The translations under genes were made by a program, and so were the position numbers. Positions 1 through 4,715 of a DNA stretch of 4,715 bases are shown in pieces. Position 1 is the stretch's first letter, and each line of letters starts with the position of its first letter. Where the stretch lies: positions 1-4,715 of IMG/VR virus record IMGVR_UViG_2671180427_000006. The stretch is one strand, 5' to 3'. The notes under the pieces are model-generated. The model did not search any database. It saw only the letters and a program-made list of their open reading frames with translations, and was not told the origin of the DNA. This DNA comes from a virus. Its lineage: Duplodnaviria; Heunggongvirae; Uroviricota; Caudoviricetes.

Positions 1-1692
1 GTCAGTGGTGCAACTGAGCCGGAGTGGTACTACGTCATCGTACTGGCCGGGCAGTCCAATGCCATGGCTTACGGTGAAGGGCTTCCGCTTCCGGATTCAT
101 ACGATGCGCCCCATCCGCGCATTAAGCAACTGGCCCGTCGTAACACAGTGACTCCCGGTGGTGAAGTATGCGTATTTAACGACATCATTCCTGCTGACCA
201 TTGTCTGCATGATGTTCAGGATATGAGTACGATTAACCATCCCCGGGCTGACCTGAGCAAAGGGCAGTACGGCTGTGTCGGACAGGGCTTACATATTGCC
301 AAAAAACTGCTTCCGTATATCCCTAATAATGCGGGGATCCTGCTGGTACCATGCTGTCGTGGTGGTTCGGCATTCACCCAGGGCACGGAGGGGACATTCA
401 GCGAGTCCACGGGGGCCAGTCAGGATTCGGCTCGCTGGGGAGTGGGTAAGCCGTTATATCAGGATCTGCTTTTCCGCACGAAGGCAGCATTGCAGAAAAA
501 CCCGAAAAACGTTTTGCTGGCGATATGCTGGATGCAGGGGGAATTCGATATGACGAATGCCAGTTACGCCCAGCAGCCAGCAGCATTTCTTGCAATGGTA
601 CAGCAGTTCCGTGCTGACCTTGCCGGGCTGGCGGCGCAGTGTCACGGTGGAAGTCCGGCATCAGTCCCCTGGATTTGTGGCGACACGACATACGCGTGGA
701 AACAAGAACACGGTACGCAATATGAAGTGGTATATGGTGCATATAAAGGTAAAGAATCCCAGCAGATTTATTTTGTTCCCTTTATGACCGATGGTAGCGG
801 AGTTAATACACCGACAAACAACCCGTCAGAAGATCCTGATATTGTCGGGTCTGGTTATTACGGTTCGGCATCCCGAACGAACAAAAACTGGGTATCATCA
901 AATCGCCCGACGCATTTCAGCTCATGGGCGCGTCGTGGCATTATTCCCGATCGTATGGCAACCGCTATTCTGAACGCAGTCGGGCGCACCTCAGCCTTCA
1001 TCAGTGGTAAGGCACCGGAAATCAAACCCTCGCCCGGCGGCGACACGCCATCGGGTCCGTCTGCAGATACGTCCGTTCGCACAATCTCCCTGCTGCCGAC
1101 AGCCGGAGAGGCTGCTGCGCAGGGCTGGACCATTAAGGACGGCGGAATTCAGTTGTCGGGTGGTGTATTTAAGATCGCCAAGCAGAGCAATAAAACCTGG
1201 TCCCTGACGCGCCCGGTGGATGACGCAGTCTCCCTGCTGACACGGGGTGGCAGACTGAGCTGTAAGTTTCGACTGTCAGGCGCACTGACCAACAATCAGT
1301 TCGGTCTGGGAATTTATCTGTATACCGATGTAGCGTTACCTGACGTCGTGGCGATGACGGGTACCGGTAACCCGTTCCTGATGTCGTTCTTCACCCAGAC
1401 CACAGACGGCAAACTGAATCTGATGCATCACAAGAAAGCAGGAAACACAAAGTTGGGCGAGTTCGGGAATTACAGTAACGACTGGCAGACGCTGGAGCTG
1501 GTGTTCACCGCCGGCAGTGCCACGGTTACTCCGAAACTGAATGGAGTGGCTGGCCCGGCATTCCAGGTCATAAAAGACAGTCTGACACTGGGGCTGAATG
1601 CGCTGACGCTGACGGATATTACCAAAAATGCAGCGTATGGCGTTGAGATAGAAAGTCTGGTGCTGGAGATAAATGCACCGGCATCATCATAA
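1..1692 (+). CDS. nanS-p: Sialate O-acetylesterase, SGNH/SASA family (NanS-p-like prophage esterase); 5'-partial, start lies upstream of window
   Basis: The reading frame is open from base 1 with no stop before the first ATG at 64. The conserved motif YVIVLAGQSNAM spans that ATG, so Met-64 is internal. GQSN (catalytic Ser block), a downstream Gly block (CCRGGSAF), the WMQGEFD (QGE) block and a later His fit SASA-type carbohydrate esterases. Stop TAA at 1690-1692. The long C-terminal Gly/Thr/Ser-rich extension is of unknown function. Confidence 0.8.
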   Translation, partial: VSGATEPEWYYVIVLAGQSNAMAYGEGLPLPDSYDAPHPRIKQLARRNTVTPGGEVCVFNDIIPADHCLHDVQDMSTINHPRADLSKGQYGCVGQGLHIAKKLLPYIPNNAGILLVPCCRGGSAFTQGTEGTFSESTGASQDSARWGVGKPLYQDLLFRTKAALQKNPKNVLLAICWMQGEFDMTNASYAQQPAAFLAMVQQFRADLAGLAAQCHGGSPASVPWICGDTTYAWKQEHGTQYEVVYGAYKGKESQQIYFVPFMTDGSGVNTPTNNPSEDPDIVGSGYYGSASRTNKNWVSSNRPTHFSSWARRGIIPDRMATAILNAVGRTSAFISGKAPEIKPSPGGDTPSGPSADTSVRTISLLPTAGEAAAQGWTIKDGGIQLSGGVFKIAKQSNKTWSLTRPVDDAVSLLTRGGRLSCKFRLSGALTNNQFGLGIYLYTDVALPDVVAMTGTGNPFLMSFFTQTTDGKLNLMHHKKAGNTKLGEFGNYSNDWQTLELVFTAGSATVTPKLNGVAGPAFQVIKDSLTLGLNALTLTDITKNAAYGVEIESLVLEINAPASS

Positions 1693-1777
1693 AAAGTGAG
1701 CCAGTCAAATGGAAGGTATCGTTAAACTCACCGGTAGTGTCAGTGGGGCGTCTGAGATGCCTGCATGAGTTATCAGA

Positions 1778-1807
1778 GCCATCAGTACTTAACTGGTGGC
1801 TTTTTTT
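1778..1807 (+). terminator. Rho-independent terminator between the esterase gene and the holin
   Basis: Stem GCCATCAG (1778-1785) / CTGGTGGC (1793-1800), 8 bp with one G-U pair, 7-nt loop TACTTAA, followed by TTTTTTT (1801-1807). Confidence 0.55.
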
Positions 1808-1842
1808 ATTGTTGTCAGCTTCCGGATAACGGGAGACGGGGT

Positions 1843-2058
1843 ATGTACCAGATGGAAAAAATCACAACAGGTGTGTCATACACCACGTCAGCGGTGGGAA
1901 CGGGCTACTGGTTCCTGCAGTTGCTGGACAGGGTTTCCCCGTCTCAGTGGGCGGCAATAGGCGTGCTGGGGAGTCTGCTGTTTGGGCTGCTGACATATCT
2001 GACTAACCTGTATTTCAAAATCAGAGAGGACCGTCGTAAGGCTGCACGGGGAGAGTAA
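1843..2058 (+). CDS. S: Class II holin, phage 21 S-type (pinholin family), 71 aa
   Basis: [71 protein letters not shown]. Two TMDs, the first Gly/Ala/Ser/Thr-rich (SAR-like), with a charged C-terminus; near-identical in pattern to S21/EssD as recalled. SD GGGAG (1831-1835) 7 nt before ATG 1843; a second in-frame Met at codon 4 gives a dual-start motif. Confidence 0.9.
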
Positions 2059-2062
2059 TTCA

Positions 2063-2413
2063 ATGACTCAAAACTATGAACTGATTGTGAAAGGGATCCG
2101 CAATTTTGAGAATAAAGTTACGGTAACTTTAGCGTTACGGGACAAAAAACGCTTTGACGGTGAAATTTTTGACCTGGACATCTCGCTGGACCGTGTTGAA
2201 GGTGCCACGCTGGAGTTTTATGAGGCAGCAGCCAGAAGGAGCATCAGACAGGTCTTCCTGGATGTTGCTGCCGGGTTATGTGAAGGGGATGAGCAGTCGC
2301 CGGAAAAGCGCCCCGTAATTTTAGAGGCGCAGAATGTATGGATAACCTACAAAGGAAAGCTACCGGGAATAATTACTGGTTCTCTGAAGACTCCTCCGGA
2401 ATCACAACCTTAA
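2063..2413 (+). CDS. ydfR: DUF1327 family protein (YdfR-like), 116 aa, conserved but uncharacterised lysis-cassette gene
   Basis: SD GGGAGAG (2049-2055) before ATG 2063, starting 4 nt after the holin stop. The N-terminal sequence MTQNYELIVKGIRNFENKVTV and the position between holin and endolysin match my recollection of YdfR in the E. coli Qin prophage (essQ-ydfR-rrrQ). Confidence 0.72.
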   Translation: MTQNYELIVKGIRNFENKVTVTLALRDKKRFDGEIFDLDISLDRVEGATLEFYEAAARRSIRQVFLDVAAGLCEGDEQSPEKRPVILEAQNVWITYKGKLPGIITGSLKTPPESQP

Positions 2414-2476
2414 GTCACTGACCGGAACAGATAAACCTGTCCGTGGGCAGAAACCGATAAATCCTGATAAATATCC

Positions 2477-3010
2477 ATGAACACCAAAATCAAATACGGC
2501 CTGTCGGCTGCCGTTCTGGCGCTGATTGCCGCTGGTGCGCCTGCGCCTGACATTCTCGACCAGTTTCTGGATGAAAAGGAAGGTAACCACACCACGGCAT
2601 ACCGTGATGGCGCGGGTATCTGGACCATCTGCCGCGGTGCCATCCTGGTGGATGGCAAACCTGTCGTTCCTGGCATGAAGTTGTCGAAGGAAAAATGCGA
2701 CCGGGTTAACGCCATTGAGCGTGATAAGGCGCTGGCATGGGTGGAGAAAAACATCAGAGTGCCATTGAGTGAACCCCAGAAAGCGGGGATCGCGTCATTC
2801 TGTCCGTACAACATTGGCCCCGGTAAGTGTTTTCCGTCGACGTTTTATAAACGAATTAATGCAGGTGATCGCAGGGGAGCGTGTGAGGCGATTCGCTGGT
2901 GGATTAAGGACGGTGGCAGGGACTGCCGTATTCGCTCAAATAACTGTTACGGTCAGGTATCCCGTCGTGACCAGGAGAGCGCGCTGGCGTGCTGGGGAAT
3001 CGACAGATAA
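2477..3010 (+). CDS. R: SAR endolysin (T4-lysozyme-like muramidase with N-terminal signal-anchor-release domain), 177 aa
   Basis: Weakly hydrophobic Ala/Gly-rich N-terminal TMD (LSAAVLALIAAGAPAP) followed by catalytic E35-x8-D44-x5-T50 (EGNHTTAYRDGAGIWT), as in phage 21 R21. Pairs functionally with the pinholin upstream. Confidence 0.92.
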   Translation: MNTKIKYGLSAAVLALIAAGAPAPDILDQFLDEKEGNHTTAYRDGAGIWTICRGAILVDGKPVVPGMKLSKEKCDRVNAIERDKALAWVEKNIRVPLSEPQKAGIASFCPYNIGPGKCFPSTFYKRINAGDRRGACEAIRWWIKDGGRDCRIRSNNCYGQVSRRDQESALACWGIDR

Positions 3011-3101
3011 GCAGAATATTTTGCTAATAAATGACGTTGGCCAAGGCGGATGGATAACACGAAATCCTGCGAACTGGCAAAATGTAAGTGAATAAAAGTA
3101 A

Positions 3102-3140
3102 AAACCCCGTTTGTTGGCAGCAAGCGGGGTTTTGTTTTTA
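3102..3140 (+). terminator. Strong Rho-independent terminator (bidirectional in appearance) about 90 bp after the endolysin
   Basis: Stem AAACCCCGTTTG (3102-3113) / CAAGCGGGGTTT (3121-3132), 12 bp with one G-U, 7-nt loop TTGGCAG, then TTTTGTTTTT. An A-rich tract upstream (AATAAAAGTAAAA) gives a T-tract on the opposite strand. Confidence 0.75.
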
Positions 3141-3204
3141 TGGCAGTAAGCTATGGGAGGCTGCCTTGATTGATTTTAGCAAACTGATTAGGGAGTTGCG
3201 ACTC

Positions 3205-3300
3205 ATGATTAGTCAATTACCAAACTGGAAATTTTTGCTGGTCTGGAGCATCCCTTTTTTATGGGTAGTATCCCAGTTAATTGTGGCAATTAAGGGGTAG
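3205..3300 (+). CDS. Hypothetical small hydrophobic peptide, 31 aa (MISQLPNWKFLLVWSIPFLWVVSQLIVAIKG)
   Basis: ATG 3205 preceded by SD GGGAG (3191-3195) with 9-nt spacing; one predicted TMD; stop TAG 3298-3300 sits 2 nt before the next ORF's ATG. Too short for the supplied ORF track. Confidence 0.4.
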   Translation: MISQLPNWKFLLVWSIPFLWVVSQLIVAIKG

Positions 3301-3302
3301 CT

Positions 3303-3434
3303 ATGTCAGACAAACTCATAACGCCGGCAAAGGTCCTGTGTGTGATTGTCGGTATTTCATTTTCACTAATGCTGGTTGCTCTTTTTCTGTCCTTCGCCTG
3401 GGTGATGTTGTCTTCGTCGGGGCTGCTGGGGTGA
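3303..3434 (+). CDS. Hypothetical small membrane peptide, 43 aa (MSDKLITPAKVLCVIVGISFSLMLVALFLSFAWVMLSSSGLLG)
   Basis: ATG 3303 with SD AAGGGG (3293-3298); polar N-terminus then a ~26-residue hydrophobic segment (single TMD); stop TGA 3432-3434 overlaps the GTG of the next ORF (GTGA). Confidence 0.45.
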   Translation: MSDKLITPAKVLCVIVGISFSLMLVALFLSFAWVMLSSSGLLG

Positions 3435-3553
3435 CAGTGACTGATGACATCAGCAGAGCGCTGGCTTTTGCTATTAAGTGGGTGGCTGTTGGTATTGCTG
3501 TGTCTCCGATGCTGTATGGGCTGGCAAAACTGGTCATTGCGCTGAAATCGTGA
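3431..3553 (+). CDS. Hypothetical small hydrophobic peptide, ~40 aa from GTG 3431 (start uncertain; ...TDDISRALAFAIKWVAVGIAVSPMLYGLAKLVIALKS)
   Basis: Open frame ending TGA 3551-3553; candidate GTG starts at 3431 or 3437; shares the motif RA(L/M)AFAI(K/R)xVA with the next peptide. The longer TTG-3281 version in the ORF track overlaps the previous ORF and lacks an SD. Confidence 0.35.
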   Translation: MTVTDDISRALAFAIKWVAVGIAVSPMLYGLAKLVIALKS

Positions 3554-3564
3554 ACTTTAAAAAG

Positions 3565-3651
3565 ATGAGTGCTGAACTTATTCGGGCAATGGCATTTGCC
3601 ATTCGTATTGTGGCCATTGCTGTTCTGGTCTGGGCAATCCGTTGGTGGTGA
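3565..3651 (+). CDS. Hypothetical small hydrophobic peptide, 28 aa ([28 protein letters not shown]), paralogous to the preceding peptide
   Basis: ATG 3565, 11 nt after the previous stop; stop TGA 3649-3651 is 1 nt before the Rz ATG; single hydrophobic helix with a Trp-rich C-terminus; no strong SD. Confidence 0.35.
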
Positions 3652-3652
3652 T

Positions 3653-4147
3653 ATGAACCGTGTTCTGTGTGTGGTGATTATTGTCCTGCTGGTAGCCTGT
3701 GGTGTGCTTAGTCTGGGGCTGAATCATTACCGCGATAACGCCATCACCTACAAAGCGCAGCGCGATAAAAAAGTCAGTGAGCTGAAACTGGCGAATGCCA
3801 CTATTACTGACATGCAGCAGCGCCAGCGAGATGTCGCTGCGCTTGATGCCAGATACACGAAGGAATTAGCCGATGCGAGAGCTGAAAATGAAACTCTGCG
3901 CGCTGATGTTGCCGCTGGTCGTAAGCGCCTGCGGGTCAACGCCACCTGCCCCGGTACCGTGCGTGAAGCCACCGGCACCTCCAGCGTGGATAATGCAACC
4001 GGCCCCCGACTGGCAGACACCGCTGAACGGGATTATTTCATCCTCAGAGAACGGTTGATGACAATGCAGAAGCAGCTGGAAGGGGCGCAGGAATATATCC
4101 GCACTCAGTGCACTAAGCTGGCTTTTTATTATCCGGAGGATACATGA
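3653..4147 (+). CDS. Rz: Rz i-spanin (inner-membrane spanin subunit), 164 aa
   Basis: [40 protein letters not shown]..., an N-terminal TMD plus coiled-coil periplasmic domain, closely matching lambda Rz as recalled ([41 protein letters not shown]). ATG 3653 chosen over the upstream GTG 3569 of the ORF track. Confidence 0.92.
3873..4058 (+). CDS. Rz1: Rz1 o-spanin (outer-membrane lipoprotein spanin subunit), 61 aa, embedded in the +1 frame of Rz
   Basis: [61 protein letters not shown]: signal peptide with lipobox (VSAC), Pro-rich mature part, strong similarity to lambda Rz1 as recalled. SD AAGGA (3859-3863) 9 nt before ATG 3873. Confidence 0.88.
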
Positions 4148-4368
4148 AGAAATTACGGGTAACCGTAGAACCTTTTCAGGGAACAATTCCGTTCCGTATT
4201 TTGCAGCGTGGTCGTGTTCTTGTTGAAGGTTCGTTCAGTGGTAAATGTACGCAATTACACTCCCGGACCTTTCAGGTGAATGCCACGAATGAAGAGCTAA
4301 CCGTGGAGTGTACGATGAATGCCGCTAAATGCCGCATGGTATCCGCTGCATTACAGCCAGTGTGTTGA
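4144..4368 (+). CDS. Hypothetical protein, 74 aa, basic N-terminus, four Cys, no TMD; start overlaps Rz stop (ATGA)
   Basis: ATG 4144 overlaps the Rz TGA (4145-4147) and is preceded by SD GGAGGA (4135-4140). [74 protein letters not shown]. No family recognised by me. Confidence 0.45.
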
Positions 4369-4571
4369 GCGACCTTATTATCCATGCGCGGTATTGTCGC
4401 CGTATTCCTGCATTAACAGAGACCGCAGCCCGACAGGGAGACTCCTCTGCGCGAGTGTGCGGGGATAATCAAAAACGATACACACCGGGGTTTACCGCGT
4501 TAACGGAGCGCGGCGTTGTCCCCTCATAGTCGCCTGTCCGGTGCGATGGTGGAAGAAACCGGACTACATTG

Positions 4572-4594
4572 AAAATGATAACCATTATCATTTT
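4572..4594. repeat. Perfect 10-bp inverted repeat AAAATGATAA-CCA-TTATCATTTT resembling a Fur box, immediately upstream of cosQ/cosN
   Basis: Arms 4572-4581 and 4585-4594 are exact reverse complements. The core AATGATAACCATTATC matches the Fur consensus GATAATGATAATCATTATC at 15 of 16 overlapping positions. No properly spaced -10 element is evident. Confidence 0.5.
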
Positions 4595-4595
4595 T

Positions 4596-4680
4596 GCGGG
4601 TCCTTTCCGGCGATCCGGGCCGTTACGGGGCGGCGACCTCGCGGTTTTTCACTATTTATGAAAATTTTTCAGGGAAAATC
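4596..4680. other. cos: cos region of a lambda-type phage (cosQ-proximal flank, cosN, beginning of cosB)
   Basis: GCGGGTCCTTTCCGGCGATCCGGGCCGTTACG | GGGCGGCGACCT | CGCGGTTTTTCACTATTTATGAAAATTTTT closely matches the lambda right end, cohesive end and first bases of the left end (recalled lambda: ACGGGTCCTTTCCGGTGATCCGACAGGTTACG / GGGCGGCGACCT / CGCGGGTTTTCGCTATTTATGAAAATTTTCC). Confidence 0.85.
4628..4639. other. cosN: cosN 12-nt cohesive-end sequence (terminase nicking site; virion genome left end would begin here)
   Basis: Exact match to the phage lambda 12-nt 5' cohesive end GGGCGGCGACCT, preceded by GTTACG as at the lambda right end. Confidence 0.85.
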
Positions 4681-4715
4681 GTGTCGGTACTTCTCGAATA
4701 TAACTTTTTGTTTTT

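Follow-up and report, generated by a model that had tools for sequence, protein, structure and literature searches.

A YdfR-family (DUF1327) gene between the holin and endolysin genes of an Escherichia prophage: an optional late passenger with a possible link to RNase E

The DUF1327 gene of the lysis region

The subject of this study is a gene of the DUF1327 (YdfR) family in a stretch of 4,715 nucleotides (nt) of tailed-phage DNA (IMG/VR virus record IMGVR_UViG_2671180427_000006, Caudoviricetes, positions 1 to 4,715), which is referred to here as the window. The window is the end of the late region of a lambda-like, Shiga toxin (Stx) phage-like prophage of Escherichia coli. On its plus strand, an ATG-initiated open reading frame (ORF) encoding 116 amino acids (aa) is located between S, the gene of a phage-21 (P21)-type holin, and R, the gene of a lysozyme resembling the signal-arrest-release (SAR) endolysins (Table 1). 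The ATG lies 4 nt behind the holin stop codon (2056-2058) and the ORF ends 63 nt upstream of the lysozyme gene. The original prediction had recognised this arrangement, which ORF analysis and Pfam matches support, and had considered a function in lysis timing or regulation, or as a moron. The gene is a member of an already catalogued family, and what is new are its modular architecture, the non-lysis contexts of its relatives, the Shine-Dalgarno sequence it shares and its match to a fragment of E. coli K-12 YdfR that interacts with RNase E. It is very likely that the gene belongs to DUF1327 and that it is optional rather than a core lysis component. Its function is addressed here by a tentative proposal, in which a late-expressed cytoplasmic accessory protein targets RNase E and/or RNA with its N-terminal domain and modulates late RNA decay or processing, while its disordered tail is exchangeable.

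The family assignment is confirmed by profile searches. PF07041 (DUF1327) matches with 145.4 bits (E 6.2e-43; curated gathering cut-off 25 bits), aligning residues 1-112 of the protein with positions 1-92 of the 93-position profile, and it is the only Pfam match at E <= 0.01; neither PF10805 nor any other lysis-regulator profile is found at that threshold. The protein also matches phrog_406 (E 3.7e-68), and all of its PHROG matches are annotated as function unknown. NCBIfam has no model for it, and none of the anti-phage defence families of PADLOC-DB matches at E <= 1. All residues of the N-terminal signature (Y5-E6-L7, V9, V21, R44, G47, Y53-E54 and A57) are present; in an alignment of 36 sequences that includes homologues at 24-26% identity, M1, Y53 and E54 are invariant and the others are conserved in at least 90%. 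Copies that are 96-100% identical occur in 80 IMG/VR loci, and the nearest database clusters (97% identical) are annotated as "YdfR family protein".

Pairwise comparison with diverged copies yielded a median ratio of non-synonymous to synonymous substitution rates (dN/dS) of 0.32 for the N-terminal domain and 0.41 for the tail; the ORF is therefore a genuine coding gene under moderate purifying constraint. A transmembrane domain (TMD) is absent from the protein, as had been predicted, because the maximal Kyte-Doolittle hydropathy over 19 residues is only 0.69; the grand average of hydropathy is -0.34. The description of the protein as acidic applies in a mild form, the isoelectric point being 5.2 and the net charge about -2 (18 D+E versus 16 K+R).

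A modular protein with a conserved N-terminal domain

The protein consists of two parts, of which only the first is conserved throughout the family. For this N-terminal domain, AlphaFold2 predicts on the basis of the 36-sequence alignment three β-strands (residues 5-14, 18-27 and 33-43) and a helix (residues 50-73) with predicted local distance difference test (pLDDT) values of 74-89. The helix is the sole predicted one, and the hydropathy profile contains no segment resembling a TMD. A double-stranded RNA-binding domain (dsRBD) was considered and rejected, as neither its α-β-β-β-α topology nor significant structural similarity was found and the first helix is missing. A search of the PDB with the family profile retrieved only CENP-P with an E value of 0.3, which is at chance level.

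The tail that follows differs between family members both in length and in sequence. It is absent from the 72-aa protein of phage Evi, and proteins with K-12-type, mEp460-type and window-type tails comprise 103, 104 and 114-116 aa, respectively. Longer family versions contain 176, 183, 206, 263, 268 or 287 aa. Pfam searches detected no domain beyond DUF1327 at significant E in these long variants (176-287 aa), nor any domain in four ORFs that neighbour DUF1327 genes in convergent orientation; since the extensions are without a recognisable domain, domain fusions provide no clue to function. The two parts are exchanged between phages. DNA matches to the window gene break within it, covering only nt 1-206 in K-12 and only nt 124-336 in O157 copies, and two alleles of the N-terminal domain are found recombined with the same tail. 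At the protein level, aa 1-74 of the window protein share 80% identity and 95% similarity with K-12 YdfR (P76160), and the alignment stops at aa 74.

Translation and transcription of the S-ydfR-R unit

The original prediction assigned to the gene a strong Shine-Dalgarno sequence (SD) of its own. The SD, GGGGAGAG, is indeed present, but it is formed by the final codons of the holin gene (..ARGE*) and it serves the lysozyme gene in a cassette that lacks DUF1327. This emerged from a comparison of the junction in the window with that in the Stx2a phage VT2phi_272 and in eight other loci. VT2phi_272 contains no DUF1327 gene, its holin gene ends with the identical sequence ..CACGGGGAGAGTAA.., and the ATG of the lysozyme follows 4 nt later. 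As the lysozyme of VT2phi_272 thus uses the same SD and the same +4 start, the DUF1327 gene took over the translationally coupled slot of the lysozyme.

In the window, the lysozyme gene is preceded instead by an A/U-rich leader without SD, GATAAATCCTGATAAATATCC, in which GATAAAT occurs twice. The same leader is present in every DUF1327-bearing cassette examined (the window and loci L001, L013, L014, L016, L017 and L019), whatever lies upstream of it, and in these seven cassettes of differing upstream content the columns adjoining the lysozyme ATG are invariant. RNA structure in the spacer and leader between the DUF1327 gene and R was not significant (z -0.24). The N-terminal allele of the lysozyme also differs, with MNTKIKYG in DUF1327-bearing cassettes versus MSRKLRYG in the DUF1327-less cassette examined, in which the strong holin-embedded SD is used. 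Cassettes of the K-12 type re-couple the lysozyme through an overlap (ATGA) of its start with the ydfR stop codon.

A crude consensus scan for sigma-70-like sites on the plus strand between 1600 and 4715 revealed none, and co-expression of the DUF1327 gene with the lysis genes, as originally predicted, is likely in the absence of a promoter-like site upstream. The nearest terminator-like hairpins are located before the holin gene and after the lysozyme gene, bracketing S-ydfR-R, and none lies around the DUF1327 gene itself. The first of these hairpins would insulate the S-ydfR-R unit from non-antiterminated transcription. The suggestion of a moron comes closer than that of a lysis-timing factor, inasmuch as the gene is present or absent at the S/R junction in otherwise corresponding cassettes (the window versus VT2phi_272). 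A classical moron, however, has its own promoter and terminator, and neither flanks the gene, which is therefore better described as an optional passenger of the late operon.

Distribution and optional presence

DNA matches to the gene were found in 4349 of 5426 complete E. coli genomes (about 80%), with at least 80% coverage in 1904 of them, and up to 10 places per genome match. In a species-level genome scan, the window subtype was confined to Escherichia and Shigella, apart from two matches in metagenome-assembled genomes (MAGs). These carry ydfR prophage sequence under the labels Veillonella parvula and Bacillota (L107 and L109) and are almost certainly mis-binned E. coli contigs. Likewise, a protein record labelled Enterococcus faecalis (P0075) most likely reflects a binning or contamination error in public data.

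Synteny was analysed in 88 loci from IMG/VR and GTDB genomes, 86 of which contain enough upstream sequence. The gene starts exactly 4 nt after the stop codon of a P21-type holin in all 86 Escherichia loci. On the other side, the distance to the lysozyme gene ranges from -83 to +1241 nt, and the 63 nt of the window are found in 68 loci. The claim of a fixed position between holin and endolysin thus holds for the upstream side and fails for the downstream side: the junction with the holin gene does not vary within Escherichia, and the opposite flank is a site of variable cargo.

The gene is not needed for a cassette of this type. When a phage collection was searched by tblastn, the holin type was found in 436 records and DUF1327 in 101, which leaves approx. 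77% of the same-holin records without it. These include deposited genomes of named phages, such as VT2phi_272, in which R follows S directly. By phage type, DUF1327 occurs in 41 of 47 Stx1a records and in 15 of 17 Stx2c records, as against only 2 of 124 Stx2a records. Its presence tracks the Stx phage type, though the holin type is common to all. Conversely, the lysozyme is dispensable for its presence. Phage phiSTEC1575-Stx2k (L018, 1281-3299) contains the P21-type holin and DUF1327 genes; behind them come two small ORFs in convergent orientation and, after these, a second, different lysis set, in which two holin-family genes and an M15 metallopeptidase gene replace the lysozyme gene; two holin systems appear to be present within this one cassette. 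Because the gene is optional and occurs here without a lysozyme partner, the element to which it is linked is the holin gene's 3' end rather than the SAR endolysin.

Homologues outside lysis cassettes

When 1.84 billion representative sequences were searched exhaustively with a profile, only 90 matches were returned. Among them are proteins of 72-76 aa with about 25-30% identity, which consist of the N-terminal domain only, and two tandem versions. Such free-standing N-terminal domain proteins are annotated as DUF1327 in Yersinia, Serratia, Sodalis and Citrobacter. They are encoded in tail operons of siphovirus type, where they share the orientation of the late genes and occupy four different slots: between the tail-assembly-chaperone genes and the tape measure gene in Serratia, immediately ahead of the gene of tail protein L in Sodalis, directly behind the tape measure gene in Citrobacter, and between L and K on metagenome contigs. 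The function of the shared domain is therefore not specific to holin-endolysin lysis. The lysis and tail-operon contexts have in common that the domain is expressed late, in temperate phages of Enterobacterales.

In many relatives, a small ORF in convergent orientation lies directly 3' of the DUF1327 gene and sometimes overlaps its 3' end. Relatives with such an ORF include E. coli H3, Evi, phage 86 and PhiR12_2; the window has none. A conserved two-gene module with the convergent ORF was considered and rejected, since the ORFs are unrelated except for one pair: the partners in Serratia and Citrobacter are homologous (36% identity, E 3e-14) despite the different tail-operon slots. The mostly unrelated convergent ORFs suggest a hot spot for cargo.

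The link of YdfR to RNase E

Literature searches found a single functional study of YdfR (Gopel et al., RNA Biol 2026; PMC13232886). A bacterial two-hybrid screen with RNase E yielded codons 1-72 of K-12 ydfR on three occasions, and full-length YdfR gave a signal only with RNase E 1-597 and none with shorter constructs (PMC13232886). Strep-tagged YdfR co-purified FLAG-Rne1-598 from lysate, and its eluate contained much DNase-resistant nucleic acid, which, by the authors' own account, might stem from a contaminating RNA-binding protein (PMC13232886). Overproduction of YdfR altered few transcripts and left growth unaffected, and ydfR reads were almost absent under standard conditions (PMC13232886). 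The K-12 protein, which is encoded in the Qin prophage between essQ and rrrQ, belongs to the same Pfam family as the window protein and occupies the same +4 slot behind a P21-type holin. It differs by its total length of 103 aa, its other tail and the ATGA overlap with the lysozyme gene in place of the 63-nt spacer. The part that carries the interaction is the part that the two proteins share, since their identity spans aa 1-74 and YdfR 1-72 suffices.

On this basis, an association of the window copy with RNase E and/or RNA, and an effect on late RNA metabolism, can be proposed by homology. Production of the protein would be confined to late lytic growth and would rely on the Q-antiterminated late transcript, with translation starting from the ribosome-binding site within the end of the holin gene. 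The compact N-terminal β-β-β-helix domain would constitute the functional core and associate with the catalytic N-terminal half of the host RNase E and/or with RNA, while the disordered and exchangeable tail would probably bind partners. The protein would thereby most likely adjust how RNA decays or is processed during the late phase, the long late transcript being one example, without contributing to any membrane or cell-wall step of lysis. The slot behind the holin gene would then represent an insertion into a permissive, translationally coupled junction and not a lysis function.

RNase E is present in the Enterobacterales hosts that carry DUF1327 prophages, and it is a plausible common target across these hosts. 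T4 Srd and T7 gp0.7 are phage-encoded modulators of RNase E. Dip (gp37) of phiKZ provides a further precedent (PMC4980113). Among host proteins, the adaptor RapZ binds RNase E's catalytic domain (PMC7430671). Like YdfR, RapZ falls into the "group II" two-hybrid class, which requires only the N-terminal domain of RNase E, and co-purifies RNA (PMC13232886); it is, however, unrelated to YdfR, much larger and tetrameric, and it has a defined small RNA target.

Several observations weigh against an RNase E-directed function. The link to RNase E comes from one study of a paralogue and consists of a two-hybrid signal and a co-purification from untreated lysate; because no nuclease was applied, an RNA bridge between YdfR and RNase E is possible (PMC13232886). 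A strong global effect on RNase E is disfavoured by the few transcripts and the unchanged growth in the overproduction experiment. With a net charge of about -1, the N-terminal domain is not basic and thus unlike an RNA binder, and the fold searches retrieved no informative relative. The tail of the window protein differs from that of K-12 YdfR. Finally, the strict +4 linkage to the holin gene would also be expected if the holin and the DUF1327 protein cooperate.

If the link is true, temperate lambdoid phages would join T4, T7 and phiKZ in manipulating the machinery by which the host degrades RNA, and the expression of late genes and of Shiga toxin might be affected. If it is false, the gene is one more common prophage ORF of unknown function. 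The DUF1327 gene has remained without an assigned function despite its presence in most of the complete E. coli genomes and most Stx1a and Stx2c phages, and its non-lysis status, the free-standing core domain in non-lysis contexts and the match to the RNase E-interacting fragment of YdfR redirect the experiments that are worthwhile.

A wider version of this proposal is rather doubtful. In this version, the N-terminal domain of about 73 aa would be a portable, late-expressed module aimed at RNase E/RNA in temperate siphophage-type prophages of Enterobacterales, whose exchangeable tails recruit different partners or RNAs; in Escherichia, where it lies after the holin gene and not in tail operons, it might also act on the SD-less lysozyme leader found with it and thereby couple the processing of late mRNA to endolysin output. 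If so, such coupling would concern the expression of the toxin-lysis late transcript in the Stx1a and Stx2c phages that carry DUF1327, unlike in most Stx2a phages.

Alternative explanations

The rival explanation that survives best, although we consider it unlikely, is a role in anti-defence, in superinfection exclusion or in another form of host takeover, directed at a target other than RNase E; the variable tails and the diverse small convergent genes would mark a cargo hot spot of the type in which counter-defence genes are carried. The presence/absence polymorphism, the mosaic alleles of the N-terminal domain and of the tail, and the diverse convergent ORFs directly downstream would fit such a function, as would the homologous convergent partners in the otherwise different slots of Serratia and Citrobacter; dN/dS values of 0.3-0.4 are, moreover, high for a housekeeping function of a phage. 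Against it, there is no PADLOC match, no recognisable domain in the extensions or in the four convergent ORFs analysed and no experimental hint, and late-only expression would come too late for most anti-restriction roles.

A role in lysis timing, as the original prediction had suggested, is improbable. The protein would bind to the pinholin or to the SAR endolysin's cytoplasmic N-terminus and tune membrane depolarisation or endolysin release, in a manner similar to an antiholin or to the releasin of phage Mu. Small proteins that are neither holin nor endolysin do occur in cassettes with SAR endolysins, such as gp25 of Mu and the antiholin LydB of P1 (PMC9025707), and the invariant +4 position behind the holin gene and the co-translation with S and R are consistent with such a role. 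The lysozyme also contains N-terminal lysines (K4 and K6), a type of feature that makes Mu gp22 dependent on its releasin (PMC9239132). The releasin gp25 itself, however, is a DUF2730 protein anchored by an N-terminal TMD (PMC9239132), whereas the DUF1327 protein has neither a TMD or other tether nor a match to DUF2730, and it has homologues outside lysis cassettes. Assignment to the antiholin/releasin class, whose members are membrane proteins, was rejected on these grounds, as no membrane segment, no lysis-regulator profile and no obligate co-occurrence with lysis genes were found. The absence of the gene from most phage records with the same holin type, the use of its +4 slot by the lysozyme in VT2phi_272, its occurrence before other holins and an M15 peptidase, and the N-terminal domain homologues in tail operons speak against a function in lysis, and no lysis role is established for the family, as had been stated from the outset. 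The deletion of ydfR in K-12 appears in the hit tables of a screen for envelope leakiness with chlorophenol red-β-D-galactopyranoside (CPRG), which has been cited as hitting ydfR (PMC13232886); in the screen itself, ydfR is found only in the supplementary score tables and is absent from the text (PMC3879167). This score is unvalidated and could result from a polar effect of the Keio resistance cassette on the downstream lysozyme gene rrrQ, and the overproduction of YdfR without any growth effect is a further point against a lysis role.

To a similar degree, we doubt that the protein binds RNA itself and acts on late phage mRNA, such as the A/U-rich lysozyme leader, directly and independently of RNase E, in which case the co-purification would have been bridged by RNA. 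The N-terminal domain is neither basic nor equipped with the first helix of a dsRBD, the homologues in tail operons are not located beside such a leader, and the nucleic acid in the YdfR eluate is subject to the authors' own reservation about a contaminant. Least probable is a mainly cis-acting effect, in which the insertion moves the lysozyme gene from the strong holin-coupled SD to the SD-less leader and so changes the ratio of holin to endolysin, the protein being minor: the shared SD and the conserved leader would agree with it, but the ORF is under purifying selection, its N-terminal domain is kept between genera, in wholly different settings and with identity as low as about 25%, and the lysozyme of the K-12 type is re-coupled by the ATGA overlap.

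Neighbouring genes and related phages

The coordinates of the features in the window, together with those of the convergent ORFs in related loci, are compiled in Table 1.

Table 1. Features of the 4,715-nt window and convergent ORFs downstream of DUF1327 genes in related loci (designated L; coordinates of the respective locus).
Feature	Position	Strand	Description
NanS-p-type sialate O-acetylesterase, 5'-cut	64-1692		PF03629 SASA and C-terminal DUF6645
Terminator-like hairpin with T-run upstream of the holin gene	1775..1803	+	12-bp stem, TTTTATTGTT tail
Phage-21-type class II holin (pinholin-like), 71 aa	1843..2058	+	MYQM dual start; PF04971 (P21 holin S), E 9e-33
Shine-Dalgarno sequence GGGGAGAG	2048..2055	+	within the last holin codons
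DUF1327/YdfR-family gene, 116 aa	2063..2413	+	ORF; PF07041, E 6.2e-43
N-terminal domain, aa 1-73	2063..2281	+	three β-strands and one long helix; only part conserved family-wide
Variable C-terminal tail, aa 74-116, CEGDEQSPEKRPVILEAQNVWITYKGKLPGIITGSLKTPPESQP	2282..2410	+	predicted disordered, pLDDT about 44-51
A/U-rich lysozyme leader GATAAATCCTGATAAATATCC	2456..2476	+	without Shine-Dalgarno sequence
SAR-type lysozyme (endolysin R), 177 aa	2477..3010	+	PF00959, E 1.3e-23
Strong terminator-like hairpin just 3' of the lysozyme gene	3101..3133	+	15-bp stem, GTTTTTATGG tail; putative function
Chain of 3-4 tiny, very hydrophobic ORFs	3166/3205-3300, 3303-3434, 3431-3553, 3550-3651		between lysozyme terminator and Rz
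Rz	3653-4147		with embedded Rz1 (3873-4058)
74-aa ORF	4144-4368		ATG overlaps Rz stop (ATGA); phrog_2571 (function unknown), E 2.7e-28
Lambda cohesive-end sequence GGGCGGCGACCT	4628-4639		followed by lambda-like cos flanks (..TCGCGGTTTTTCACTATTTATGAAAATTTT..)
Convergent ORF, L001	8373-8645	-	
Convergent ORF, L002	4244-4519	-	
Convergent ORF, L006	4266-4553	-	
Convergent ORF, L010	4273-4821	-	
Convergent ORF, L014	2044-2340	-	
Convergent ORF, L016	3317-3631	-	
Convergent ORF, L018	1811-2083	-	
Convergent ORF, L019	1958-2218	-	

The window holin is 79% identical to the holin of the K-12 Qin prophage. Its N-terminus (MYQM, 1843-1854) is without lysine at position 2, the corresponding sequence of the Qin holin being MKSM. 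Lysine 2 of the longer S71 product of phage 21 confers its antiholin character; because this residue is missing, dual-start antiholin control may differ in the window allele. The lysozyme is 88% identical to K-12 RrrQ, and its SAR-like nature was read from the sequence, which combines an Ala/Gly-rich, weakly hydrophobic N-terminus with an E35-8aa-D44-5aa-T50 motif.

Genes annotated "YdfR family protein" occupy the same slot behind S in Stx1a, Stx2c and other lambdoid phages (BP-4795 ORF47, H-19B, phage 86 gp05 and mEp460_055). BP-4795 and phage 86 share the window-type tail but contain a second allele of the N-terminal domain (about 65% identity), and the version of phage 86 comprises 268 aa. 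In many of these lambdoid copies, the extra convergent ORF follows, unlike in the window.

Downstream of the lysozyme gene, the tiny hydrophobic ORFs between 3166 and 3651 are joined by overlapping stop and start codons (GTGA), and the last of them stops 1 nt before the ATG of Rz. Two share an AFAI(K/R)(W/I)VA(V/I) motif. They match PHROGs 4906, 1115, 3246 and 4493, all annotated as function unknown, correspond to hypothetical proteins in E. coli H3 and might encode small membrane proteins that belong to the lysis region. The 74-aa ORF behind Rz covers only positions 100-172 of the 291-position phrog_2571 profile, so that it may represent a fragment or else a single domain of some longer protein found elsewhere. 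The cohesive-end sequence with its flanks places the end of the window at the cos site of a packaging system of lambda type, in agreement with the terminase small subunit that comes next in E. coli H3.

The nearest matches among complete genomes are human E. coli isolates with 98-99.6% identity. Their annotated gene order is SASA esterase, class II holin, YdfR family protein, lysozyme, hypothetical proteins, lysis protein and terminase, and an antiterminator, a DNA methyltransferase and three tRNAs lie upstream. Stx phages typically carry esterases of the NanS-p SASA type downstream of stx, and in such a phage stx would be expected between the tRNAs and the esterase. The closest full prophage, that of E. 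coli H3, carries tRNA-Ile/Arg/Arg, and nothing but a pseudogene fragment separates these tRNAs from the esterase.

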